From Promethearchaeota archaeon (GTDB lineage: Archaea; Asgardarchaeota; Lokiarchaeia; Sigyniarchaeales; SOKP01), in the NCBI GenBank assembly GCA_004524535.1, contig SDNY01000111.1, positions 1 through 11,353 on the forward strand: a DNA stretch of 11,353 nt. Direction: 5' to 3'. The position numbers were made by a program, and so were the translations under genes. Shown in pieces: positions 1 to 9,454 of the stretch. The notes beneath the pieces are model-generated. The model was not told where the DNA came from, ran no database searches, and saw only the letters and a list, made by a program, of their open reading frames with translations. Each line of letters begins with the position of its first letter. Position 1 is the stretch's first letter.

Positions 1-851
1 GGTTTTTGAATTTTAATAGGAAGATCCAAATTTTCAATTCCTTCGGCAAGTAATTTTGCATTTTTATGGTCTTCCTCGAGTCTTTTAATCCATTTTGGTT
101 CAAGAGCTACTAAACCAAAAGAAGCGATTATTCCTGCTTGTCGCATACCACCTCCTAATATCTTTCGAAATTTTCTTGCCTTCATAATTAAACTCTTTGA
201 GCCTGCAACAATTGATCCTACAGGACATGAAAGTCCTTTAGACAAACAAAACATCACACTATCAACATGTTTTGTAAATTCAGTTACCGGCATATTAATT
301 CCAATCGCAGCATTAAATATTCTTGCACCATCTAAATGGAACTTTAAGTCATTCTTTTCAGCAAATTGTTTCATGTTCCGTAAATCCTCAGGTCTAATAA
401 TTGCTCCTCCATGATAATTATGAGTATTTTCAGCACATAAAAGAGTGGTAGGTGCTTCATGTGCATCTTCCTTAATATGGATTAATTTTTGAAGTTCATC
501 GAGCAAGGGAACCCCTTTCTTTGATGGATATCTCTTAAATTTTAATCCAGCCACTCGAGTCGCACCATCTAATTCATGTTCATAAATATGACTAAGCTCT
601 TCCAATAGAATTTCTTCTCCAGGATAAGTGTGTGATAATAATGAAACGAGATTACCTTGTGTACCCGAAGTAACATATAACGCTGCTTCCTTACCCATGA
701 TTTTGGCAGCTTTTTCCTCTAACTCATTAATAGTCGGGTCTTCTCCATATACATCATCTCCGATTTTTGAATTATCTAAAGATTTAACCTTTTCCCACAT
801 TTCAGGAGAAGGTTTTGTTATTGTATCTGACCGTAAATCAACTATTTTCAT
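1..851 (-). CDS. ltaE: Low-specificity L-threonine aldolase (PLP-dependent), 3' end beyond window
   Basis: Not in the ORF track. Translated by hand from ATG at 851-849: MKIVDLRSDTITKPSPEM...GDDVYGEDPTINELEEKAAKIMGKEAALYVTSGTQGN...ENTHNYHGG...HLDGARIFNA...FCLSKGLSCPVGS...RKILGGGMRQAG. These are LtaE hallmark motifs, including the PLP-binding Lys in SKGL. The frame stays open to position 1. Confidence 0.95.
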   Translation of the reverse strand, partial: MKIVDLRSDTITKPSPEMWEKVKSLDNSKIGDDVYGEDPTINELEEKAAKIMGKEAALYVTSGTQGNLVSLLSHTYPGEEILLEELSHIYEHELDGATRVAGLKFKRYPSKKGVPLLDELQKLIHIKEDAHEAPTTLLCAENTHNYHGGAIIRPEDLRNMKQFAEKNDLKFHLDGARIFNAAIGINMPVTEFTKHVDSVMFCLSKGLSCPVGSIVAGSKSLIMKARKFRKILGGGMRQAGIIASFGLVALEPKWIKRLEEDHKNAKLLAEGIENLDLPIKIQK

Positions 852-869
852 AAATTTTGTCCCTAATTC

Positions 870-1238
870 TTATGATTTTAAAACAATTGTTATTGCTCTA
901 GTTAGACGGACCACATCCATTACTTTTCCTTTTTCAACAGTAATTTGTTCCCTACTTATAGCATGAGTGAAATCCCCGCGTCCCTGACAAATATTCACAA
1001 TGGAATTATTATCACCTGTCATAACAATCCCAGGATTAGAGGCAGCTCCATTAATTAGTTTTGCCTTTCTCTCTTTAATTTCTACATAAAACGGATCTTC
1101 ATTATCTAGATTAAATTGAAAAGTCATTTCCCAATCGATATCTTTTCCCGCAACATTAGTAATAAAAACTTGCTGTGCTTTCTGAATACTATTCATTTTT
1201 TCAATGATTTTACTTAAATTTTCGCTTGCGATGCCCAT
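870..1238 (-). CDS. Stand-alone SCP2 sterol/lipid-binding domain protein
   Basis: 122 aa with an SCP2-like pattern (TFQFNLDNEDPFYVEIKERKAKLINGAASNPGIVMTGD...GRGDFTHAISREQITVEKGKVMDVVRL). A GAGGGGGGTG RBS-like motif lies just upstream, and the gap to the DUF35 gene is 2 nt. Confidence 0.8.
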   Translation of the reverse strand: MGIASENLSKIIEKMNSIQKAQQVFITNVAGKDIDWEMTFQFNLDNEDPFYVEIKERKAKLINGAASNPGIVMTGDNNSIVNICQGRGDFTHAISREQITVEKGKVMDVVRLTRAITIVLKS

Positions 1239-1240
1239 AA

Positions 1241-1738
1241 TTACACACCCCCCTCATATTCTGGTTTATTAATCCATGTTTCATACTCATCTTCAGGTAC
1301 AAAGAAAAAATCTGTCATTTTTCCTTCTCTTTCTTTCAAAAAGACAGCCTTCACAAAACTGCCCTTCTTAACTTTCGATGGTACTAAGTTTTCCGAGAAA
1401 ATCCCTTGAAGTAATGCAGTGTCGGCCCCATCCAATTTAACATAAGCAACTCCGTAAGGAATAGCTTTTATAAAAGCTGAAGTGGTATACCACACAATGG
1501 TACTCACTTCTATCGTCCCCGTTTGTTTCATTTCAATCCAATCGGCAGGTTCGTAACATTCAGAGCAATTTATCCTAGGAGGCATCCATGTTTTTCCACA
1601 TTTAGTACATTTAGTCCCTAATAGTTTTTTATTATTTTTTAGCTCAATAAAGAACTTCGATTGACTACCCATAGTATATTTGTATTGAATGATGATCTTG
1701 TCTCTTATTTCGTGTGCTTGAAAATTTTCTCCACTCAT
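1241..1738 (-). CDS. DUF35-family Zn-ribbon + OB-fold protein (ChsH2/BbsA-like thiolase partner)
   Basis: Zinc ribbon CTKC-x10-CSEC (GTKCTKCGKTWMPPRINCSEC) followed by an OB-fold segment PYGVAYVKLDGADT. It overlaps the thiolase stop by 4 nt (ATGA) and has a GAGGAGGGG RBS upstream. Confidence 0.92.
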   Translation of the reverse strand: MSGENFQAHEIRDKIIIQYKYTMGSQSKFFIELKNNKKLLGTKCTKCGKTWMPPRINCSECYEPADWIEMKQTGTIEVSTIVWYTTSAFIKAIPYGVAYVKLDGADTALLQGIFSENLVPSKVKKGSFVKAVFLKEREGKMTDFFFVPEDEYETWINKPEYEGGV

Positions 1739-2994
1739 GGCTTTTTCAACCCCTCCTCATTTGCCATTACAATAATTGCGGCATAAGCAGCTCCCGGGCC
1801 TCCAATTGAATGAGATATGGCCCGACCTTTTTCGATTCTTACCTGATGTTTACCAGCTTCCTCTCTAATTTGTAGAGCCGCTTCTCCAGTACTCATGATT
1901 CCAGTTGCTCCCACAGCATGTCCACATCCGATTAATCCTCCCGAGGGACAACATGGCAATTCTCCATCTAACCAAGGACCTTCTCCTGATTTTTCGAATG
2001 AGTTTTCAATCCAAGGACCGCCCTCTCCAAATGGTACAAATCCCAATTCTTCATAGGAAATTACTTCTTGTCCCGAAAAAGCATCATGAAGCTCAGCAAC
2101 ATCAATTTGATTCTTTATATTATTATAATCAAGTCCCGCCATTTTATATGCTACTTTGGCGGCTTCGATATTTGAATAAAGTCGTCCAATGCTCTCTCTA
2201 TTTCCTATAAAACAGTCCGTATTCGCAGCACCGACTCCCGTTATCCATATAGGTTTTTCTATTCCTAGTTCTTTCACTTTTTGTTCACTCGCTAAAATTA
2301 ATGCGGCAGAAGCCTCAGAATAAAGACAGCAATCTAGCATTTTAAATGGATAACAAATAATCCTTGAGTATATAACATCTTCAACTGTTATTTTCATTGG
2401 AGATTGAGCTTTTGGATTAAGCATCGCATTCCCATGATTTTTAACGCTGACAAATGCCATTTGCTCTTCTGTTGGATTACCAAATTCTTCATAATGAGCA
2501 TTCACCATTGATACATAAGAACTTGCTGCCATCATACCCATAGGATATTCATATGTCATATCTGCGGAGTAAGCAATAGCATTTAGTACTTCAGGTGTCG
2601 TTGTTCCCGTCTGTTCATCATAACAATCATTGCATTTCTCTAAACCAATGCATAAACATAAATCTGTAAGTCCTGAAGCTACTTCCGCATAAGCCATTCT
2701 AACTGTATAACCTCCAGTTGCACCACCAGTAGCAATACGGGTTCCCGGTTTATCATTCATGCCTAAATAAGAGTTAGTAAAAATATCAGGCATAAATTGG
2801 CGCTCAAATAACTCATTGTATATTCCATATACAGTTGATTGTAAATCTTTATGTGAGATTTGCGCGCCATTTTTGTTTGAATCATCCAAAGCCAGTTTTG
2901 TTGCATCATAAGCCAGTTCAAAATAGGTTTTGTCAAGATATCTCGCTCTAAAAGGAGTAATACCTACTCCGATTATAGCTACTTTATTTGGCAT
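1735..2994 (-). CDS. Thiolase-family protein (SCP-x/Ltp-type clade) lacking the canonical nucleophilic cysteine
   Basis: 419 aa with N-terminal KVAIIGVGITPF, VKNHGNAMLNPKAQ, DVAELHDAF and SGGLIGCGHAVGATG motifs. The usual ACASG nucleophile loop reads ATGGATGG. Confidence 0.93.
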   Translation of the reverse strand: MPNKVAIIGVGITPFRARYLDKTYFELAYDATKLALDDSNKNGAQISHKDLQSTVYGIYNELFERQFMPDIFTNSYLGMNDKPGTRIATGGATGGYTVRMAYAEVASGLTDLCLCIGLEKCNDCYDEQTGTTTPEVLNAIAYSADMTYEYPMGMMAASSYVSMVNAHYEEFGNPTEEQMAFVSVKNHGNAMLNPKAQSPMKITVEDVIYSRIICYPFKMLDCCLYSEASAALILASEQKVKELGIEKPIWITGVGAANTDCFIGNRESIGRLYSNIEAAKVAYKMAGLDYNNIKNQIDVAELHDAFSGQEVISYEELGFVPFGEGGPWIENSFEKSGEGPWLDGELPCCPSGGLIGCGHAVGATGIMSTGEAALQIREEAGKHQVRIEKGRAISHSIGGPGAAYAAIIVMANEEGLKKP

Positions 2995-3259
2995 TTTATT
3001 TCCTACATTTTTTGATTTTTTCTATTATTTAATTTATAATTAATTCAATTAATTATGATTAAATCTTGATTACACTTAATAATATTTAATCTTTTCAAAA
3101 AAAGGTAAAAATATATCAGAATATTCAAGAAATTTGATTATTATCTTTTTATAAAATATTAGAAATTAAGGATAATAAATTATTATTTTTACTTAAATAA
3201 TAAGAGTTTAATTAGTTCATTAAAAAATAAAGATCATAGAAAAAGAAAAGAATTAGATA
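2995..3259. promoter_or_regulatory. Divergent AT-rich promoter region containing a 21-bp inverted repeat (3036-3056)
   Basis: Intergenic between the divergent thiolase and methyltransferase starts. ATAATTAATT-C-AATTAATTAT is a perfect 10-1-10 dyad. Individual TATA boxes cannot be assigned in such AT-rich DNA. Confidence 0.5.
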
Positions 3260-4354
3260 ATGAAGACCATTCATAGAATTTATTATAAGAATTCAAACAA
3301 TATGAGTGAATTAGAAGAAGATTCCGTTGATTTAATTATAACTTCGCCTCCCTATCCTATGATTGAAATGTGGGATTCTATATTTTCATCATTAAATGAT
3401 AAGATAAAAGAATCTCTTGATGATGGAGCTGGAAAAAAAGCTTTTCTTCTAATGCATGAAGAAATGAACAGGGTTTGGAAAGAATGTGCGAGAGTTCTAA
3501 AGCCTGGCGGGATCGCATGTATTAATATTGGAGATGCAACGAGAAAAATAAATAATACCTTTCAATTATTTCCTAATCATGTGAATATAACGAGTTATTT
3601 TCAGAATAACAATTTTATATCATTACCATGCATTTTATGGAGAAAACCAACAAATAGCCCCAATAAATTTTTAGGGTCAGGAATGCTCCCACCTAATGCT
3701 TATATTACCCTTGAACATGAATATATTTTAATTTTTAGAAAAGGCAATAATAAGAGAAAATTGGAGCCAAAATTAGATAATAGATATAATAGTGCTTATT
3801 TTTGGGAAGAAAGAAATAAATGGTTTTCAGATGTTTGGATGGATATTAGAGGAACTGCTCAAAATATTAAAAATAAAAACAATAATGGTGAGATAAGAGA
3901 ACGCTCAGCAGCATTTCCCTTAGAACTCCCATATAGATTAATTAATATGTTTTCAATTTATGAAGATACTATATTGGATCCATTTTGGGGTACAGGAACT
4001 ACTACTTTTGCGGCAATAATATCTGCAAGAAATTCTGTGGGTTATGAATTAAACTCTCAATTTAAAGAATTATTCGAATCATCATTGAAATCGGCTATAG
4101 AAATAAATAAAATGTATAATGAAAGAAGATTTCAGGAGCATATAAAATTTATAAAACAACATAAGAAAAATGGGAAAGATTTTAAATATAAAATTAATAA
4201 TTACAATTTACCAATTGTAACAAAACAAGAGGAAAACATTAAATTCTATTCGATTAAGGATTATAATAAAAATGATGAAAAATATGTCTTTCGATATGAA
4301 GAATATCAATTTGAACGAAAACCAAAATTTATTCAGTCACGTCTTATACCTTAA
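3260..4354 (+). CDS. Type II DNA methyltransferase, beta class, probably N4-cytosine (M.MjaI/M.MthZI/Zim-like, CTAG)
   Basis: Motif IV DLIITSPPY is N-terminal and motif I ILDPFWGTGTT is C-terminal (beta order). SPPY is typical of m4C enzymes. SPPYPMIEMWD and GSGMLPPNAY resemble archaeal CTAG methylases as I recall them. It lies next to an MjaI-like nuclease. Confidence 0.92.
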   Translation: MKTIHRIYYKNSNNMSELEEDSVDLIITSPPYPMIEMWDSIFSSLNDKIKESLDDGAGKKAFLLMHEEMNRVWKECARVLKPGGIACINIGDATRKINNTFQLFPNHVNITSYFQNNNFISLPCILWRKPTNSPNKFLGSGMLPPNAYITLEHEYILIFRKGNNKRKLEPKLDNRYNSAYFWEERNKWFSDVWMDIRGTAQNIKNKNNNGEIRERSAAFPLELPYRLINMFSIYEDTILDPFWGTGTTTFAAIISARNSVGYELNSQFKELFESSLKSAIEINKMYNERRFQEHIKFIKQHKKNGKDFKYKINNYNLPIVTKQEENIKFYSIKDYNKNDEKYVFRYEEYQFERKPKFIQSRLIP

Positions 4355-4508
4355 ATAAGGAGCTTTTGTTAAAGAAAAATATTCAATAACAAAAAAACAG
4401 TTAAATTTCTTAAATTTAATAAGAATTAAATTAAATCTCTTCTGAATATTATTTAAATAAGAGAAAAAATCAAAAAATCATCAATTTTCATTAAGAGTGA
4501 TTAATAAA

Positions 4509-5144
4509 ATGCCAAAAGAGTGGATATTAAACAGCGTAATGAATCGTTTTCAATTAAATTATAAACGTAATGTCGGCGCTGTTTCGGAACAAATTAGAAA
4601 ATGTTCACCAAAAACTATAGAAGAATGGAAAAATTACTACTTTAAAAACGTAAAATCCAAAAGACATATAGAAGATTTGGGTAGAAAGTTATATATAAAA
4701 ATTACAGAAGTGATTTCAGCTGAAGTTGAAAGTATTACAGAAGAAGACTGTATTGAATATATGTATAACATGGTGATAAATAGAACTTTTGATGGGTATA
4801 TGACTGAAATTAAGACTATTTATGGTCAACTTGAGAAAATACTTGGAGTTAAAATTGAACCCGCACCAGATAAATGGGATAGGTTATTCAATGTAGATTT
4901 CTACATTAAAATAAAAGATAAATATATTGGACTCCAAGTAAAACCAGCGGGTGATGTTAGTCATATCCCTCAAATATTTAAAGAACGGAAAATACAAGCG
5001 AATACACATAAGGAATTTGAGCAAAAGTATGGAGGGAAAGTTTTTTATATAATATCCATCAAAGAAAATAAAAAAAAAGTAATACAGAATAAAGAAGTTA
5101 TTGATGAAATTAGAAAAGAAATGGAAAGATTGAAAAGTAGTTAG
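4509..5144 (+). CDS. MjaI-family type II restriction endonuclease
   Basis: PD-(D/E)xK-like core DRLFNVDFYIKIKDKYIGLQVKP and N-terminal KEWILN...RNVG...EEWKNYY, matching my recollection of RE_MjaI proteins. It is downstream of the MTase. I prefer ATG 4509 over GTG 4497 because GAGTGA (4495-4500) fits an archaeal RBS. Confidence 0.8.
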   Translation: MPKEWILNSVMNRFQLNYKRNVGAVSEQIRKCSPKTIEEWKNYYFKNVKSKRHIEDLGRKLYIKITEVISAEVESITEEDCIEYMYNMVINRTFDGYMTEIKTIYGQLEKILGVKIEPAPDKWDRLFNVDFYIKIKDKYIGLQVKPAGDVSHIPQIFKERKIQANTHKEFEQKYGGKVFYIISIKENKKKVIQNKEVIDEIRKEMERLKSS

Positions 5145-5165
5145 TAAATCTACTATTTTTATTTT
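5142..5165 (+). terminator. Possible terminator after the endonuclease
   Basis: TAGTA-aatc-TACTA short stem followed by TTTTTATTTT directly at the stop codon. Confidence 0.3.
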
Positions 5166-5243
5166 AAAAAAAGTATAATAATCTTAATCTCAAGATATAT
5201 AATAAGATAATTTTTTTATTAGAAGTTCTAGTGGCAAAATTAT

Positions 5244-5778
5244 ATGTCAAAAGACAGAAAAAAATTAGAGCATAGTACGGGAAATAATTTAAATTACAAA
5301 GAGTATTTTAAAATCGGATTGGAATATTTTGAGAAGGAAAAATATGAAGAATCAATACGAAACTACAATCTAGCAATAGAACTAAATTCTAATAGACCAA
5401 ATATTTGGACAAATAAAAGTCTTGCTTTAGCTAAATTAGAAAGATATGAAGATGCCAATATTAGTGCTGATAGAGCAATTAGATTAAACCCAGAAGATTA
5501 TATCGCATGGAATATAAAGGGTTTTTCTTTAAAAAAAAAGGGGTCAGAAACAAAAGGCGATTAAGTGTTTTGATAAATCCATCAAATATAATCCAGATTT
5601 TCTTAATGCTTATCATAATAAAGGAAATACATTATTTGAACTCGAAAAATATGAAGAAGCTTTAGACTGCTTTGTTTCTGCAATGAATCTTGACCCCGAA
5701 AACAAATACTTTCTAATGATGACTGGAAATATATATGATAAACTTATTAGGTATTTACAATTTTGTAGAGAGAATTAG
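5244..5778 (+). pseudogene. Tetratricopeptide-repeat protein (4 TPRs, 177 aa if restored) interrupted by a 1-nt frameshift
   Basis: ORF 5244-5564 has two TPRs and the start of a third. The +1 frame from 5542 continues GQKQKAIKCFDKSIKYNPDFLNAYHNKGNTLFELEKYEEALDCFVSAMNLDPENKYFLMMTGNIYDKLIRYLQFCREN to TAG at 5776-5778. The shift falls in A9G4 (5531-5543). Confidence 0.85.
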
Positions 5779-5800
5779 GAATAATAAGATAAGCACAGAT

Positions 5801-6232
5801 TTATTCTTTAATCTTTAAGAGATAATTTTCTATTTCTCTTTTGAACTCAGAATAAACCGCAGAAATATCGTCCATTAGTGGTTTTAATTTTTCCTCATCA
5901 ATTAAAAAACCATATGCATGCGTGAAGAAATGACGAAAAAAAAGATATTTGCCTATTTTATCAATAGTCTCTTTTTTCATTAAGTTATTTTCAATAACTA
6001 AATTCAACAAATCTTTATGCCACGTAGGTGACTCTGGGATTGATATGTTTTGATGTAAAAGGAGTTGTTTTAAAATATTTTCCATATCTGTATAGATATT
6101 TTGAAGAAATGCTCCAATTCCTACAAGAACTACGAGTTCTTTTGTTGCTTTATTTTTTACTTTTTTTAACTCAACTAAAACTTTTTCAATATTTTCAATC
6201 TCTGCAAGAATCTTATTTTTAACGCTAGCCAT
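5801..6232 (-). CDS. hepT: HEPN/DUF86-type (HepT-like) ribonuclease toxin
   Basis: Contains the R-x4-H-x-Y motif (FRHFFTHAYG) and a PESPTWHKDLL segment. Start placed at ATG 6232 (MASVKNK), giving an 8-nt overlap with the MNT stop. The ORF-track start at 6247 is probably too long. Confidence 0.88.
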   Translation of the reverse strand: MASVKNKILAEIENIEKVLVELKKVKNKATKELVVLVGIGAFLQNIYTDMENILKQLLLHQNISIPESPTWHKDLLNLVIENNLMKKETIDKIGKYLFFRHFFTHAYGFLIDEEKLKPLMDDISAVYSEFKREIENYLLKIKE

Positions 6233-6494
6233 ATAAAACCAATCCATCTTCCTCTATTAATTTATTGAATGAACAATCTATATTTAGGTCAATAATATCA
6301 ACTGGTTTAGATAAATCTCTATATAATTCCCAGCAAAAATCAAAAAATAATTTAGGAGAGATACCCTTTACACCGATATCTATATCTCGTGCATCGGTTC
6401 TCTCTTTGGAGGAACCGAAGAGAATAACTTTTTCTATTTTATATTTTTTCGCATATTTTAATATTGTATTCTTATCTTTTTCGGATATCATCAT
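6225..6494 (-). CDS. mntA: Minimal nucleotidyltransferase (MntA-like) antitoxin
   Basis: 89 aa with VILFGS-x8-DIDIGV and C-terminal KPVDIIDL...LIEEDGLVLY. It is directly upstream of and overlaps the HEPN gene. Confidence 0.9.
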   Translation of the reverse strand: MMISEKDKNTILKYAKKYKIEKVILFGSSKERTDARDIDIGVKGISPKLFFDFCWELYRDLSKPVDIIDLNIDCSFNKLIEEDGLVLYG

Positions 6495-6645
6495 ATATCA
6501 TATCTTTTTTAATATATATTTAGCTTTCGGTGTGCATTGAAAATTAGATTATCTTTTCCAAATCTTATTCGATTGAGACTTTTTATCATATTATTTTTAA
6601 ACGATAATGTTATTATTATAGTTTTTTAATTTCAAAACCTTAATT

Positions 6646-6659
6646 ATTACTATAGTAAT
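6646..6659. promoter_or_regulatory. Perfect 14-bp palindrome, candidate operator
   Basis: ATTACTATAGTAAT, about 40 nt upstream of the NMO start, in the divergent mntA/NMO spacer. Confidence 0.35.
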
Positions 6660-6698: not shown

Positions 6699-7721
6699 AT
6701 GATAAAAACGAGAATAACAGAAAAGTTTGGGATAAAATATCCCATTCTTAGCGCACCTATGGGTCCCTTTTACACTACTGAATTAACTATTGCCACATCT
6801 GAAGCGGGAGGGCTTGGAGTGCTAAGCCATGTTACATTACTAGGAAAAAATTCGATTAAAGATATGAAAGAGCAAATAGATCATGTTATAGAGAATACAG
6901 ATAAGCCATTTGGTGTTAATATTAGAACAGCGCGAGTACAAACTGATCATAAAATATTATTGAGAAAGATAGCTGACTGGCGTAATAAAAATCCGAAACT
7001 AAGAGAACAATTGATTTATGGACTAACTAGTGCTGGTGGACCTAGACTGGCTGGTAAAGTATGGAAGAAATCTGCTCCCGATATGTTTCATTTTCATGTA
7101 GGACCAGCTTTATGGCTTGTTGACAAGATTGTTGATTCGGGATGCGATGGTATTGTTGCTACGGGCACTGAAGGTGGAGGGCATCAGAGCTATGAAGGTA
7201 TAAGTACATTAGTTCTAGTACAACAAGTAGCTCGTAAATATCCAGATAAATTGATGGTAGCTTGTGGGGGGTTTAGTAGCCCAGAAGGTGTTGCGGCAGG
7301 TTTAGCTATGGGTGCAGATGCAATTGCTATGGGAACTCGATTTATTGCGTCAAATCAAAGCGAATTTCACCCTAATTATAAAGCACTTATTCCTCCTGCG
7401 ACTGCCAGAGACACATTGCTTACAACAGGCGGTTTCGGTCCTATACGTTTGCTAAAAAACAAATATTGCATAGAGCATGGAGAAGTAATTTCAAAACAAG
7501 AAAAAATAGCTCAAGAATTAAGTTATGATGTAGCTGGATACATTGATGACTTAAAGAAATATATGATTGTGTATACAGAGGGAGATGTGGAAAATGGTGC
7601 TATCCCAGTAGGACAAACCGTTGGTTTGATTGATTCGATATTAGATGTAGATGATATCATATCAGGATTTACGAAAGAAGCAGAAAAGATATTAAAAAAC
7701 CTATGTTCAAACATAACTTAA
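6699..7721 (+). CDS. Nitronate monooxygenase / FabK-like FMN-dependent oxidoreductase
   Basis: Motifs TRITEKFGIKYPILSAPM, SEAGGLG, TDKPFGVN, TGTEGGGH (catalytic His), ACGGF, AMGADAIAMGTRFIAS and GQTVGLI. Confidence 0.92.
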   Translation: MIKTRITEKFGIKYPILSAPMGPFYTTELTIATSEAGGLGVLSHVTLLGKNSIKDMKEQIDHVIENTDKPFGVNIRTARVQTDHKILLRKIADWRNKNPKLREQLIYGLTSAGGPRLAGKVWKKSAPDMFHFHVGPALWLVDKIVDSGCDGIVATGTEGGGHQSYEGISTLVLVQQVARKYPDKLMVACGGFSSPEGVAAGLAMGADAIAMGTRFIASNQSEFHPNYKALIPPATARDTLLTTGGFGPIRLLKNKYCIEHGEVISKQEKIAQELSYDVAGYIDDLKKYMIVYTEGDVENGAIPVGQTVGLIDSILDVDDIISGFTKEAEKILKNLCSNIT

Positions 7722-7781: not shown

Positions 7782-8051
7782 ATGCCAGAAACAACACCGA
7801 ATTTAAGAAAAAAGATTAAAGAATTAATGAATTTAACATATAGAGCAATAACTGATTTATCTAAGTGTAAATCTTGCGGAACATGCGTAAAATTTTGTCC
7901 ATTAAAAATCAGAGAATTCAATTCTGAAGGAAAGGCTATTACTATAAAAAATGATAAATCTTGTGGAGGTTGTTCCGTTTGTTATAAAAGATGTCCTCAA
8001 AACGCTATAAAATTAATTTCTATTAAAAAAGATATAAATATTCAGAAATAG
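7782..8051 (+). CDS. 2x[4Fe-4S] dicluster ferredoxin
   Basis: Two CxxCxxCxxxCP motifs (CKSCGTCVKFCP and CGGCSVCYKRCP). The start could instead be the internal Met (MNLTYRA). Confidence 0.9.
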   Translation: MPETTPNLRKKIKELMNLTYRAITDLSKCKSCGTCVKFCPLKIREFNSEGKAITIKNDKSCGGCSVCYKRCPQNAIKLISIKKDINIQK

Positions 8052-8632: not shown

Positions 8633-9454
8633 TTATTTTCCAATAAAAATTGGATCGCGCTTTTCTTTTAGCGCTTTTAAAGATTCTCCAAAATCTCTGC
8701 TGATAATCGTTTTAACCCATCCTTTATTCTCTAAATCTAATTGTTTTTCAATGATTTCTCTAAAATAAGCATGCATTGTTTTTTTCATTAATTTTATAGA
8801 TACACTTGGTCCTTTCGGAGGAATCAATCTTAAAGCTTGCTCTCTTGCAAATGGCATTAACTCATCGGGTGGTAAAACCTTATTTATTAAACCGAGTTTC
8901 TCCGCATCTTGAGGTGATATTTTATCACCAAAATAAAAGAGTTCTTTAGCTTTACTGAATCCTACAATTAGAGGTAAAAGAAAAGTAGTAGCAAAATCAG
9001 GCATAACAGCTCGTTTTATAAAATATAACCCAAACCAAGAATTTTCTGAAGCATATGAAAGATCCGCACAAATAACGGGAAGTGTAAAACCACCTCCAAC
9101 AGCAAGACCGTTTATCGCAGCAATCACGGGTTTAGGGAAATCCCAAAATTTTAAACATAATTTTTTCGAAGCCATATCTCTTAAGTCTATTTCTTTAGCA
9201 TATTCTTGAGGAACTTCCTTTCGCACATCTTTAGTAAAATATCCTCCAGAACAAAAAGCATTTGCCTCTTCACAGCCAGTTAGAATCATGACTTTAATTT
9301 CTCGATCTTTCTGAGCAAGGTCTAAAGCGTACCAAAGTTCTAATAAAGTAAGAGGAGATAAAGCATTTTTCCGCTCAGGTCGATTTAAAATAACGGTTAC
9401 AATTCCATTTTCTTCTTTTTCAAATAGGATATCCTTGAAATCTTCACTTCTCAT
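8633..9454 (-). CDS. Enoyl-CoA hydratase/isomerase (crotonase) family protein, PaaG-like active site
   Basis: Motifs VILNRPERKNALS, AFCSGG, PKPVIAAINGLAVGGG, AEKLGLINKV and EKRDPIFIGK. Confidence 0.93.
   Translation of the reverse strand: MRSEDFKDILFEKEENGIVTVILNRPERKNALSPLTLLELWYALDLAQKDREIKVMILTGCEEANAFCSGGYFTKDVRKEVPQEYAKEIDLRDMASKKLCLKFWDFPKPVIAAINGLAVGGGFTLPVICADLSYASENSWFGLYFIKRAVMPDFATTFLLPLIVGFSKAKELFYFGDKISPQDAEKLGLINKVLPPDELMPFAREQALRLIPPKGPSVSIKLMKKTMHAYFREIIEKQLDLENKGWVKTIISRDFGESLKALKEKRDPIFIGK

Follow-up and report, generated by a model that had tools for sequence, protein, structure and literature searches.

The pairing of thiolases with DUF35 proteins is textbook knowledge. 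Such pairs form the core of archaeal mevalonate synthesis and, according to a recent preprint, of fatty-acid synthesis, and they are numerous in Asgard genomes, which encode 3.8 ketothiolase/DUF35 pairs on average, as stated in 10.1101/2024.07.05.601840. Here we analyze an operon of three genes that encode a thiolase-fold protein lacking the nucleophile cysteine (hereinafter, the thiolase-like protein), a DUF35 protein and a divergent SCP2-fold protein, located in a stretch of 11,353 nucleotides (nt) from a Promethearchaeota archaeon of the class Lokiarchaeia (positions 1 to 11,353 of contig SDNY01000111.1, assembly GCA_004524535.1). This stretch, the window in what follows, is contig C58 of a 3.66 Mb genome that consists of 198 contigs and is 99% complete by marker genes. 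The family of the thiolase-like protein is sharply separated from its relatives and evolves very slowly; it has dispensed with the nucleophile while retaining the pocket otherwise, and has gained a lipid carrier of its own. The three genes probably encode a putative complex that would perform C-C chemistry other than that of thiolases on hydrophobic acyl-CoAs.

The best matches of the thiolase-like protein, by both sequence and fold, are the archaeal acetoacetyl-CoA thiolases that associate with DUF35, with or without 3-hydroxy-3-methylglutaryl-CoA (HMG-CoA) synthase, namely, the complex of M. thermolithotrophicus (6ESQ/6ET9) and PFC_04095 of P. furiosus (7YVY), with phmmer E-values (E) of 6.2e-39 for 6esq and 2.4e-42 for 7yvy. 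The shared features are the SCP2-type thiolase fold, the DUF35 partner gene and the histidine of the GH-x-x-GATG motif as well as, in the case of 7yvy, the HDAF motif. However, these thiolases possess the nucleophile Cys, which is replaced by Gly91 in the protein from the window; the latter additionally contains a (nearly) invariant Asp123-Cys124 pair followed by a longer loop; and, unlike the 6ESQ/6ET9 system, the operon includes no HMG-CoA synthase, the third subunit being the SCP2-fold protein. The initial annotation of the window, made from the sequence alone, had pointed out that HMG-CoA synthase was absent, which is correct for the window; elsewhere in the genome, however, a mevalonate-type cluster (contig C165) encodes a fusion of an HMG-CoA synthase-like (HMGCS-like) protein with DUF35, adjoining a thiolase that has the nucleophile Cys and the HDCF motif. 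An archaeal thiolase fold without the nucleophile Cys is also found in ST0096 of Sulfolobus tokodaii (4YZO; E 6.6e-39; second rank among the fold matches), a protein of 373 amino acids that differs in having an aligned Ser rather than Gly, and HDMA rather than HDAF; to our knowledge, ST0096 has no assigned function. The SCPx/SCP2-thiolases of zebrafish (6HSJ; E 3.3e-35) and trypanosomatids (3ZBG, 4BI9), along with TbSLP (5AB4-7), belong to the same thiolase subfamily. SCPx is a fusion of a thiolase-fold domain with an SCP2 domain, whereas in the operon analyzed here SCP2 is a separate, highly divergent protein that, in the model described below, is docked via a family-specific motif, and the enzyme lacks both cysteines. 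In the ketothiolase/DUF35 fatty-acid synthase of S. acidocaldarius (Saci_1121/1120, with a reductase and a dehydratase), a DUF35 adaptor likewise lets a thiolase-fold dimer recruit another protein, but Saci_1121 is an active Cys thiolase and the partners recruited there are enzymes, not a lipid carrier.

Two further systems, the steroid side-chain aldolases Ltp2-ChsH2 (6OK1) and Sal-Shy (9MYR), share with the operon the thiolase fold, a DUF35 partner and Gly at the nucleophile position, the latter being a proposal in the case of Ltp2. According to PMC12329534, CtSal, in which Gly replaces the thiolase nucleophile, is incapable of thiolysis, the hydroxyl of its substrate contacts the backbone of Gly89, an equivalent Gly is proposed for TcLtp2, and HDCF, YDCF, YDCY and YDHF are equivalent motifs. 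Unlike in Ltp2 and Sal, the first residue of this motif in the thiolase-like protein is not the catalytic Tyr (YDHF or YDCY) but His, and the Cys or His two positions further on is Ala; specifically, the position of Cys304, the second catalytic residue of the Sal motif, is occupied by Ala305 (in Ltp2, the second catalytic residue is Tyr344). Moreover, the DUF35 protein is not the C-terminus of a MaoC hydratase, and the host is an anaerobic archaeon, with nothing linking it to steroids. Membership of the thiolase-like protein in the Ltp2/Sal family was rejected on account of the His in place of the catalytic Tyr, the Ala in the third position of the motif and the closer relationship with archaeal thiolases. 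In the literature searched, no archaeal thiolase/DUF35 pair in which the thiolase lacks Cys was found to be described.

Active site and relatives of the thiolase-like protein

The thiolase-like protein contains the thiolase fold and the conserved histidine of the G-H-P/A-x-G-A-T/S-G signature, and matches the Pfam families Thiolase_C_1 (1.2e-23) and Thiolase_N (3.6e-06). In the phmmer alignments with solved thiolases, its RIATGGATGG loop is aligned with KIEAACASGG of the P. furiosus thiolase, which places Gly91 at the position of the nucleophile Cys, located in thiolases at the N-terminal end of helix N-alpha-3; the same residue matches the nucleophile Cys of 6esq. In the alignment with the M. 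thermolithotrophicus enzyme, HDAF (residues 303-306) corresponds to HDCF, and GHAVGATG (residues 358-365) to GH-x-x-GATG. The family alignment of 109 rows included the query and those 108 of the 120 best database homologues that are at least 380 amino acids long (12 shorter fragments were left out); the homologues are 52-91% identical and come from Asgard archaea, Thermoplasmatota and some bacteria, with Promethearchaeota, Helarchaeota, Thermoplasmatota, Methanomassiliicoccales, Nitrospirota and Planctomycetes among the source names. Gly-Gly at positions 90-91 and His359 are present in all 109 rows, HDAF and with it His303 in 108 (the remaining row has a gap), and the intact GHAVGATG in 107. 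Thus, the initial description of a nucleophile loop devoid of Cys, accompanied by HDAF and GHAVGATG, is accurate, but the statement that HDAF was 'kept' hides the loss of the second, acid/base Cys of thiolases, given that SCP2-type thiolases usually have HDCF at this place. In the C-terminal loop, the sequence SIGGPG lacks the acid/base Cys of the C-x-G motif of thiolases. HDAF together with the nucleophile Cys does occur in true archaeal thiolase relatives, namely, 7yvy and 18 of the 130 nearest cluster representatives (see below). Because the nucleophile Cys is replaced by Gly throughout the family, the thiolase-fold protein cannot, judging by its sequence, be a classical thiolase, in agreement with the original proposal. 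That the pocket (Gly, His303, His359) is conserved in bacteria as well as in Asgard archaea and Thermoplasmatota speaks for a functional ligand site, and the retention of the histidine pair and the glycine loops across these phyla argues, more specifically, for an acyl-CoA site that would stabilize an enolate. In public sources, the homologues are mostly labelled 'thiolase family protein' or 'acetyl-CoA acetyltransferase'; the latter annotation is inappropriate regardless of whether the protein is an aldolase or is inactive.

Among the 11 cysteines of the thiolase-like protein, Cys124 alone is conserved (107 of the 109 rows), next to Asp123, which is kept in at least 98% of the rows. The other ten vary, including Cys121, Cys222 and Cys223, which, along with Cys124, belong to the EKCNDC and DCC segments that had been named at the outset as potential sources of a nucleophile. 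The position of Cys124 is occupied by Ala in 7yvy, by Val in 6esq and by Cys in 4 of the 130 representatives, and is directly followed by a family-specific insertion of 7-9 residues.

None of the three proteins encoded in the operon scores above the cut-off of any curated NCBIfam family. For the thiolase-like protein, the best scores were obtained with PRK06064 (293.7, cut-off 420) and PRK06365 (288, cut-off 695), compared to 228.7 for AcCoTHIOL_METTL (cut-off 600), 176.7 for the lipid-transfer family PRK08256 (cut-off 436) and 136.7 for BbsB (cut-off 750). Its nearest solved relatives are archaeal thiolases and ST0096 (E 2.4e-42 to 6.6e-39, against 1.9e-18 for Ltp2, 6ok1). The AlphaFold model, with a mean predicted local confidence (pLDDT) of 82.6 and values below 50 at residues 122-126, 132-154 and 214-222, has 6esq_A as its best fold match (Foldseek E 4.9e-30, TM 0.83/0.89), with Ltp2 and Sal at ranks 47 and 49. 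Clustering of the library at 50% identity leaves one representative (821 bits) for the entire family; the protein next in the ranking reaches 317 bits and is 47% identical. We surveyed the active-site residues of the 130 representatives of at least 340 amino acids among the 149 other listed ones. The nucleophile position is occupied by Cys in 68, Gly in 35, Asp in 8, Ala in 5 and Ser in 4. When the nucleophile, the first and third residues of the motif and the GH histidine are read in this order, the pattern Cys/His/Cys/His is found in 46 representatives, Cys/His/Ala/His in 18, Gly/Tyr/x/Asn in 11 and Gly/His/Ala/His, the combination characteristic of the thiolase-like family, in 9. By these residues, the family looks like a Cys-to-Gly derivative of an HDAF-type archaeal thiolase and one of several Cys-less lineages.

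Of the 11 thiolase-fold paralogues encoded in the genome, 6 possess and 5 lack the nucleophile Cys, and there are 7 DUF35 matches. In a tree of these 11 paralogues and 12 family members, the family is separate from a 100/99 clade that holds all six Cys-bearing paralogues; however, with its long branches, an arbitrary root and at least two changes required for the Cys-less state, this tree makes no usable statement on origin. A separate cluster on contig C146 consists of a DUF35 gene, two adjoining Cys-less thiolase-fold genes and another DUF35 gene, followed by a convergent gene for a 473-amino-acid paralogue with TGGATGG and HDAF; clusters of this type also adjoin the operon in loci L034, L039, L065, L075, L079, L081, L085, L086 and L091.

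The partner proteins and their predicted complex

The DUF35 protein matches the Pfam families zf-ChsH2 (26.4 bits, cut-off 23.2) and OB_ChsH2_C (25.6 bits in hmmscan, with a cut-off of 27.1, and 27.5 bits in a six-frame search), that is, it consists of a C4 zinc ribbon followed by an OB fold, and the four zinc-ribbon cysteines are invariant in all 17 aligned sequences. The search for fused forms of this protein yielded just three longer proteins (307-326 amino acids) that match PF01796 only and contain no hydratase domain, a result that is weak as evidence.

The assignment of the third gene to SCP2 in the initial annotation finds little backing in the sequence itself: the Pfam SCP2 family (PF02036) scores 16.1 bits, below the cut-off of 21.3 (E 0.037), and hmmscan recovered no Pfam match for the 122-amino-acid protein at E 0.01. 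A profile of 17 orthologues compared with the PDB matches the SCP2-like protein 3cnu of A. fulgidus (E 0.0024). The assignment is borne out at the level of the fold. The AlphaFold model (pLDDT 95.6) has 44 PDB matches at E<=0.001 in Foldseek, the top-ranked of which are SCP2 proteins (TM 0.58-0.75), including 3bn8 (E 1.3e-07), 2cx7, mosquito and human SCP2 and UbiJ-SCP2; the model thus confirms an SCP2 alpha/beta fold.

Modelling of the three proteins together, as had been suggested from the outset, supports the proposed composition of a thiolase-fold subunit with a DUF35 partner and an SCP2-fold third subunit. In the three-chain model, the SCP2-like protein scores 0.74, compared to 0.00 for the best of three controls. 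Of 157 solved complexes, 116 attain this mark, as do 2 of 215 mismatched pairs, although these counts apply only roughly to a prediction made with our own alignments and with three chains. At least 90% of the contacts are shared among the runs, and the pLDDT of the partner is at least 89. The predicted interface involves residues 86-97 of the SCP2-like protein, residues 205-216 of the thiolase-like protein, and residues 81-94 and 117-121 of DUF35, many of which are invariant in the respective families. The SCP2-like protein is thus predicted to dock, via its invariant motif, on a joint thiolase/DUF35 surface. No solved thiolase/DUF35/SCP2 complex was found in the searches made, so that memory of a similar complex is an unlikely source of the SCP2 contact in the model.

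Genomic context and possible reactions

The open reading frames and their spacing are as originally reported: the start of the DUF35 gene shares 4 nt with the stop of the thiolase-like gene, and a gap of 2 nt separates DUF35 from the SCP2-like gene. A scan of genome contigs, in which the best 80 of 310 relatives, all of the Lokiarchaeia type, gave 79 loci that were counted, revealed orthologues of the thiolase-like protein with 84-93% identity (tblastn), which indicates strong purifying selection. The DUF35 gene follows in 74 of the 79 loci and the SCP2-like gene is present in 71, the other 5 and 8 loci, respectively, ending before the place in question; accordingly, the order of the three genes is held in every locus that reaches far enough, and the same order is found in L095, a metagenome locus unrelated to these. 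In a sample of 301 genomes from the phylum, the thiolase-like query has a match at E<=1e-100 in 50, of which 46 are among the 68 genomes of the family to which the window itself belongs; for most of the remaining families of the phylum, none was found with this query at this threshold.

Within 6 kb of the operon, the 79 loci contain NMO genes (40), an acyl-CoA synthetase cluster (27), ferredoxin (13), threonine aldolase (11) and crotonase clusters (6, 5 and 4). In the nearest locus, L013, the NMO gene is located 225 bp from the thiolase-like gene, and NMO with ferredoxin is the ancestral divergent neighbour of the operon. In the window, the operon has been split from this neighbour by a 3.6-kb island of 25-27% G+C that is absent from L013 and encodes a DNA methyltransferase, a restriction endonuclease, a TPR protein and a toxin-antitoxin pair (Table 1). 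The NMO/ferredoxin genes encode a candidate enoyl-CoA reductase or dehydrogenase of the pathway to which the operon would belong, and the crotonase is, by proximity alone, a candidate hydratase. The threonine-aldolase-like gene (NCBIfam GntG family, 330.9 bits, cut-off 230) lies 18 nt downstream of the SCP2-like gene on the same strand and may be co-transcribed with the operon here, yet it is a variable neighbour; that an enzyme which forms aldehydes is encoded next to a putative acyl-CoA aldolase is suggestive, although such proximity is limited to the 11 loci mentioned above.

A metagenome scan with a Thermoplasmatota member of the family gave 5 loci, of which 2 were long enough to read, so that the Thermoplasmatota and bacterial contexts rest on very few loci. 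L092 encodes, in order, an acyl-CoA synthetase, MaoC, an acyl-CoA dehydrogenase (ACAD), the Cys-less thiolase-like protein, DUF35 and another acyl-CoA synthetase. In L108, genes for a MaoC-like and a BKACE protein are located upstream, and an ACAD gene directly downstream, of the thiolase-like/DUF35 pair; L107 contains an acyl-CoA synthetase gene near the pair, and L109 nothing informative. No 3-hydroxyacyl-CoA dehydrogenase or short-chain dehydrogenase/reductase was found in any annotated neighbourhood. The context in L092 and L108 matches the logic of ChsE/ChsH/Ltp2.

Because Gly occupies the nucleophile position, as in CtSal, the partner is DUF35, and the context includes ACAD and a hydratase without a dehydrogenase, retro-aldol (or aldol) chemistry is our best single guess for a three-protein acyl-CoA complex with an enolate-based, non-thiolytic mechanism, although we hold this guess tentatively and would put its probability somewhat below even. 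Under this scheme, DUF35 would be bound to a dimer of the thiolase-fold protein in the manner seen in every solved thiolase/DUF35 assembly, with the SCP2-fold protein docked on their joint surface. The thiolase-fold subunit would bind the acyl-CoA, and the two histidines, His303 and His359, would stabilize the thioester enolate, with no acyl-enzyme of the thiolase type being formed; the bond between C-alpha and C-beta of a 3-hydroxyacyl-CoA would be broken (or made) in an aldol-type reaction, to yield acetyl- or propionyl-CoA and an aldehyde or ketone, while the hydrophobic tail or the product would be accommodated by the SCP2-fold subunit. The 3-hydroxyacyl-CoA would be supplied by the neighbouring acyl-CoA synthetase, flavin oxidoreductase (ACAD, or NMO with ferredoxin) and hydratase (MaoC or crotonase). 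Thus, the non-thiolytic C-C cleavage originally put forward by analogy with Ltp2 gains from the Gly shared with Sal and from the ACAD and MaoC genes next to the pair in two divergent loci, whereas the affiliation with Ltp2/Sal itself does not hold, and nothing points to either a steroid or a hopanoid, the substrates that had been suggested, in particular. A narrower variant, in which the complex is an archaeal acyl-CoA aldolase cleaving those 3-hydroxyacyl-CoAs that are not amenable to oxidation to the 3-keto form, such as tertiary alcohols derived from 3-methyl-branched isoprenoid acids, appears quite unlikely. If this variant were true, anaerobic Asgard archaea and Thermoplasmatota would shorten isoprenoid or bulky lipid chains without a thiolase or a dehydrogenase, holding the chain on a dedicated SCP2 subunit; in reverse, with the hydratase and the ferredoxin-linked NMO reductase encoded nearby, an aldehyde would be extended by acetyl-CoA with no uphill Claisen step and no ATP.

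Several observations weigh against the aldolase interpretation. The aldolase residues of the sole characterized relatives, the Tyr of YDHF (Ltp2) or YDCY (Sal) and the Cys or His two positions on, are gone, being replaced by His303 and Ala305, and no replacement acid/base pair was identified in the thiolase-like protein, which resembles true archaeal thiolases far more closely than it does Ltp2 or Sal. The DUF35 partner is a free-standing protein of 165 amino acids; the ACAD/MaoC context is found in two of the five divergent loci (L092 and L108, and not L095, L107 or L109); and a missing nearby dehydrogenase gene is weak evidence. Low-depth contigs from the RNA runs X19 and X20 cover 7 and 5, respectively, of 30 bins of a thiolase-like orthologue, which is insufficient to establish transcription of the operon or its level. 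In addition, the conserved Cys124, absent at that position from the Cys-bearing thiolases and located in a segment of the AlphaFold model with pLDDT below 50, could be a relocated nucleophile or acid/base residue.

An inactive thiolase-fold subunit, PhlA, is known in PhlABC. By this precedent, the thiolase-like protein might be a non-catalytic pseudo-thiolase that serves only to bind, sequester or pass on acyl-CoAs or lipids, or else to scaffold or regulate other enzymes, which would fit the loss of both classical catalytic cysteines with no replacement catalytic pair identified as well as the integral, conserved lipid-carrier subunit. The six Cys-bearing paralogues in the genome could then supply the catalysis, and DUF35 does scaffold further enzymes in S. 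acidocaldarius, as described in 10.1101/2024.07.05.601840. We nevertheless consider this explanation unlikely: the invariance of the active-site histidines and glycine loops across phyla is unusual for a dead site, in contrast to the two Cys-less proteins encoded on contig C146, in which the HD and GH motifs are gone, too, and with a single thiolase-fold gene in the operon, no catalytic partner is encoded alongside.

The retention of the enolate-stabilizing histidine pair and the removal of the nucleophile are also compatible with other enolate chemistry that depends on the oxyanion hole only, namely, decarboxylation of malonyl-type or 3-carboxyacyl-CoAs, or water-dependent cleavage of 3-ketoacyl-CoA to a free acid and acetyl-CoA; nearby acyl-CoA synthetase genes could re-activate the released acid. 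The Cys-less TbSLP decarboxylates malonyl-CoA, but with a kcat of 0.005 per s, a rate so low that its authors suggest that this protein is really an aldolase (PMC12329534). Given also that the annotated neighbourhoods include no carboxylase or source of a carboxylated substrate, and that the SCP2 partner suggests a long hydrophobic tail rather than malonyl-CoA, such chemistry seems improbable. Finally, thiolase or acyltransferase activity might persist if Cys124, in the remodelled loop after the EK strand, has taken over as the reactive thiol. The near-invariance of Cys124 and Asp123 against the variability of the other ten cysteines, the rarity of Cys at this position among the relatives and the insertion just after it are in line with this possibility. 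However, Gly at the old nucleophile position is itself invariant, as in aldolases, the model is unreliable at Cys124 and thus gives no placement near His359, and we know of no thiolase-superfamily enzyme that draws its nucleophile from a loop of this type, so that such a relocation is distinctly improbable.

Should the aldolase interpretation be correct, chemistry of the Ltp2/Sal type would extend from bacterial steroid catabolism to anaerobic archaea, with a bearing on lipid handling in the relatives of the eukaryotic ancestor; should the protein be inactive, the complex would be a clear case of a conserved pseudo-enzyme with a carrier.

Table 1. Features of the window, related clusters and hairpin inserts
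Feature	Location	Strand	Remarks
PLP-dependent threonine-aldolase-like gene (GntG/LtaE type)	3..851	-	Pfam Beta_elim_lyase 6e-90
SCP2-fold gene	870..1238	-	122 amino acids; divergent; invariant G-x-G-D-F-T-H-x-I-S-R-E motif, residues 86-97
DUF35 gene	1241..1738	-	165 amino acids; C4 zinc ribbon (Cys44, 47, 58, 61) and OB fold
Thiolase-fold gene	1735..2994	-	419 amino acids; Gly91, HDAF (His303, Ala305), GHAVGATG (His359), Asp123-Cys124
Low-G+C island	3031..6650		
N6/N4 DNA methyltransferase	3260-4354		in 3.6-kb island
MjaI-type restriction endonuclease	4497-5144		in 3.6-kb island
TPR protein	5244-5564		in 3.6-kb island
HepT/nucleotidyltransferase toxin-antitoxin pair	5801-6494		in 3.6-kb island
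NMO/FabK-like FMN oxidoreductase	6699..7721	+	Pfam NMO 2.3e-37
2x[4Fe-4S] ferredoxin	7782..8051	+	Pfam Fer4 families
Crotonase-type enoyl-CoA hydratase	8633..9454	-	Pfam ECH_1 2.3e-52
DUF35/Cys-less thiolase-fold cluster, same genome	C146:7425-12731		
Adjoining Cys-less thiolase-fold genes	C146:7688-8818; C146:8824-10068		HD and GH motifs gone
Three-gene unit in tandem	L050:491-2600; L050:2808-4947		
Inserts in thiolase-like orthologues	L064:1519-1548		
Inserts in thiolase-like orthologues	L097:752-781, 1327-1356		
Inserts in thiolase-like orthologues	L098:871-900		
Inserts in thiolase-like orthologues	L099:1388-1417, 1196-1225		
Inserts in thiolase-like orthologues	L100:1409-1437, 1217-1246		
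Inserts in thiolase-like orthologues	L101:537-566, 645-674, 759-787, 1171-1200		
Further insert loci	L046, L050, L062, L089		
Insert in cdhD	C8 near 3059		halves match NCBIfam profile positions 130-277, 279-433
Insert in cdhA	C100 near 12007		halves match NCBIfam profile positions 8-62, 62-761
Insert in acetoacetate-CoA ligase	C74 near 9893		halves match NCBIfam profile positions 28-320, 320-654
Insert in HMGCS-like/DUF35 fusion	C165:60413-60502		insert of same kind

Stop-bearing hairpin inserts in orthologues and core genes

The copy of the thiolase-like gene in the window is uninterrupted, and orthologues in other Lokiarchaeia genomes carry inserts of 29-30 nt that contain stop codons. These inserts are located after nt 379, 457, 541 and 924 of the 1260-nt gene, with one to four per gene in ten loci (Table 1); two of them are 29 nt long and hence shift the frame. 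At the centre of each insert is a hairpin whose loop comprises about 5 nt, and at site 379, three different sequences keep the hairpin through compensatory changes. Removal of the inserts restores a clean full-length frame in 3 of 6 copies, and in the other 3 leaves one stop exactly at the junction; in L099 and L100, a script test showed that this stop is cleared by shifting the cut by a few bases, and L101 was checked by eye only. The sequences that flank the inserts at sites 379 and 924 fold to give an outer helix, a bulge of 3 nt and a helix of 4-6 bp, which is reminiscent of one half of the bulge-helix-bulge signal on which the archaeal splicing endonuclease acts; the picture is less clear for the other sites. 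In the X19 metatranscriptome, one contig of 151 nt, at a depth of 2, follows the thiolase-like gene up to the 5' edge of insert 924 and then continues with 14 letters that are the first letters after insert 379 in L097. This is what a circularized middle exon would give, and this single low-depth contig is only a hint of cutting at the RNA level. We regard the inserts as candidate mini-introns of protein-coding genes in Asgard archaea, with ribosomal bypassing and decay of the genes as possible alternatives.

Similar inserts, with a stem of about 9 bp and a loop of 5 nt, are present in four core genes of the window's own genome (Table 1). The genome-wide screen for hairpin inserts is noisy, the genome being AT-rich, and its two versions gave 32 and 104 candidates, so that no count is given; three candidates were convincing by eye, and one more was found by another route. 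In the literature searched, no mRNA introns of Asgard archaea were found; what the search did return was the cbf5 mRNA intron of crenarchaea and tRNA introns of Asgard archaea. The same genome encodes two EndA-family proteins and one RtcB protein. Possibly, these inserts are more important than the operon itself. Duplications of the three-gene unit were observed as well, in tandem in L050 and as two copies per assembly in L046 and L064, and in the duplicated units, the second copy carries the insert at site 924.

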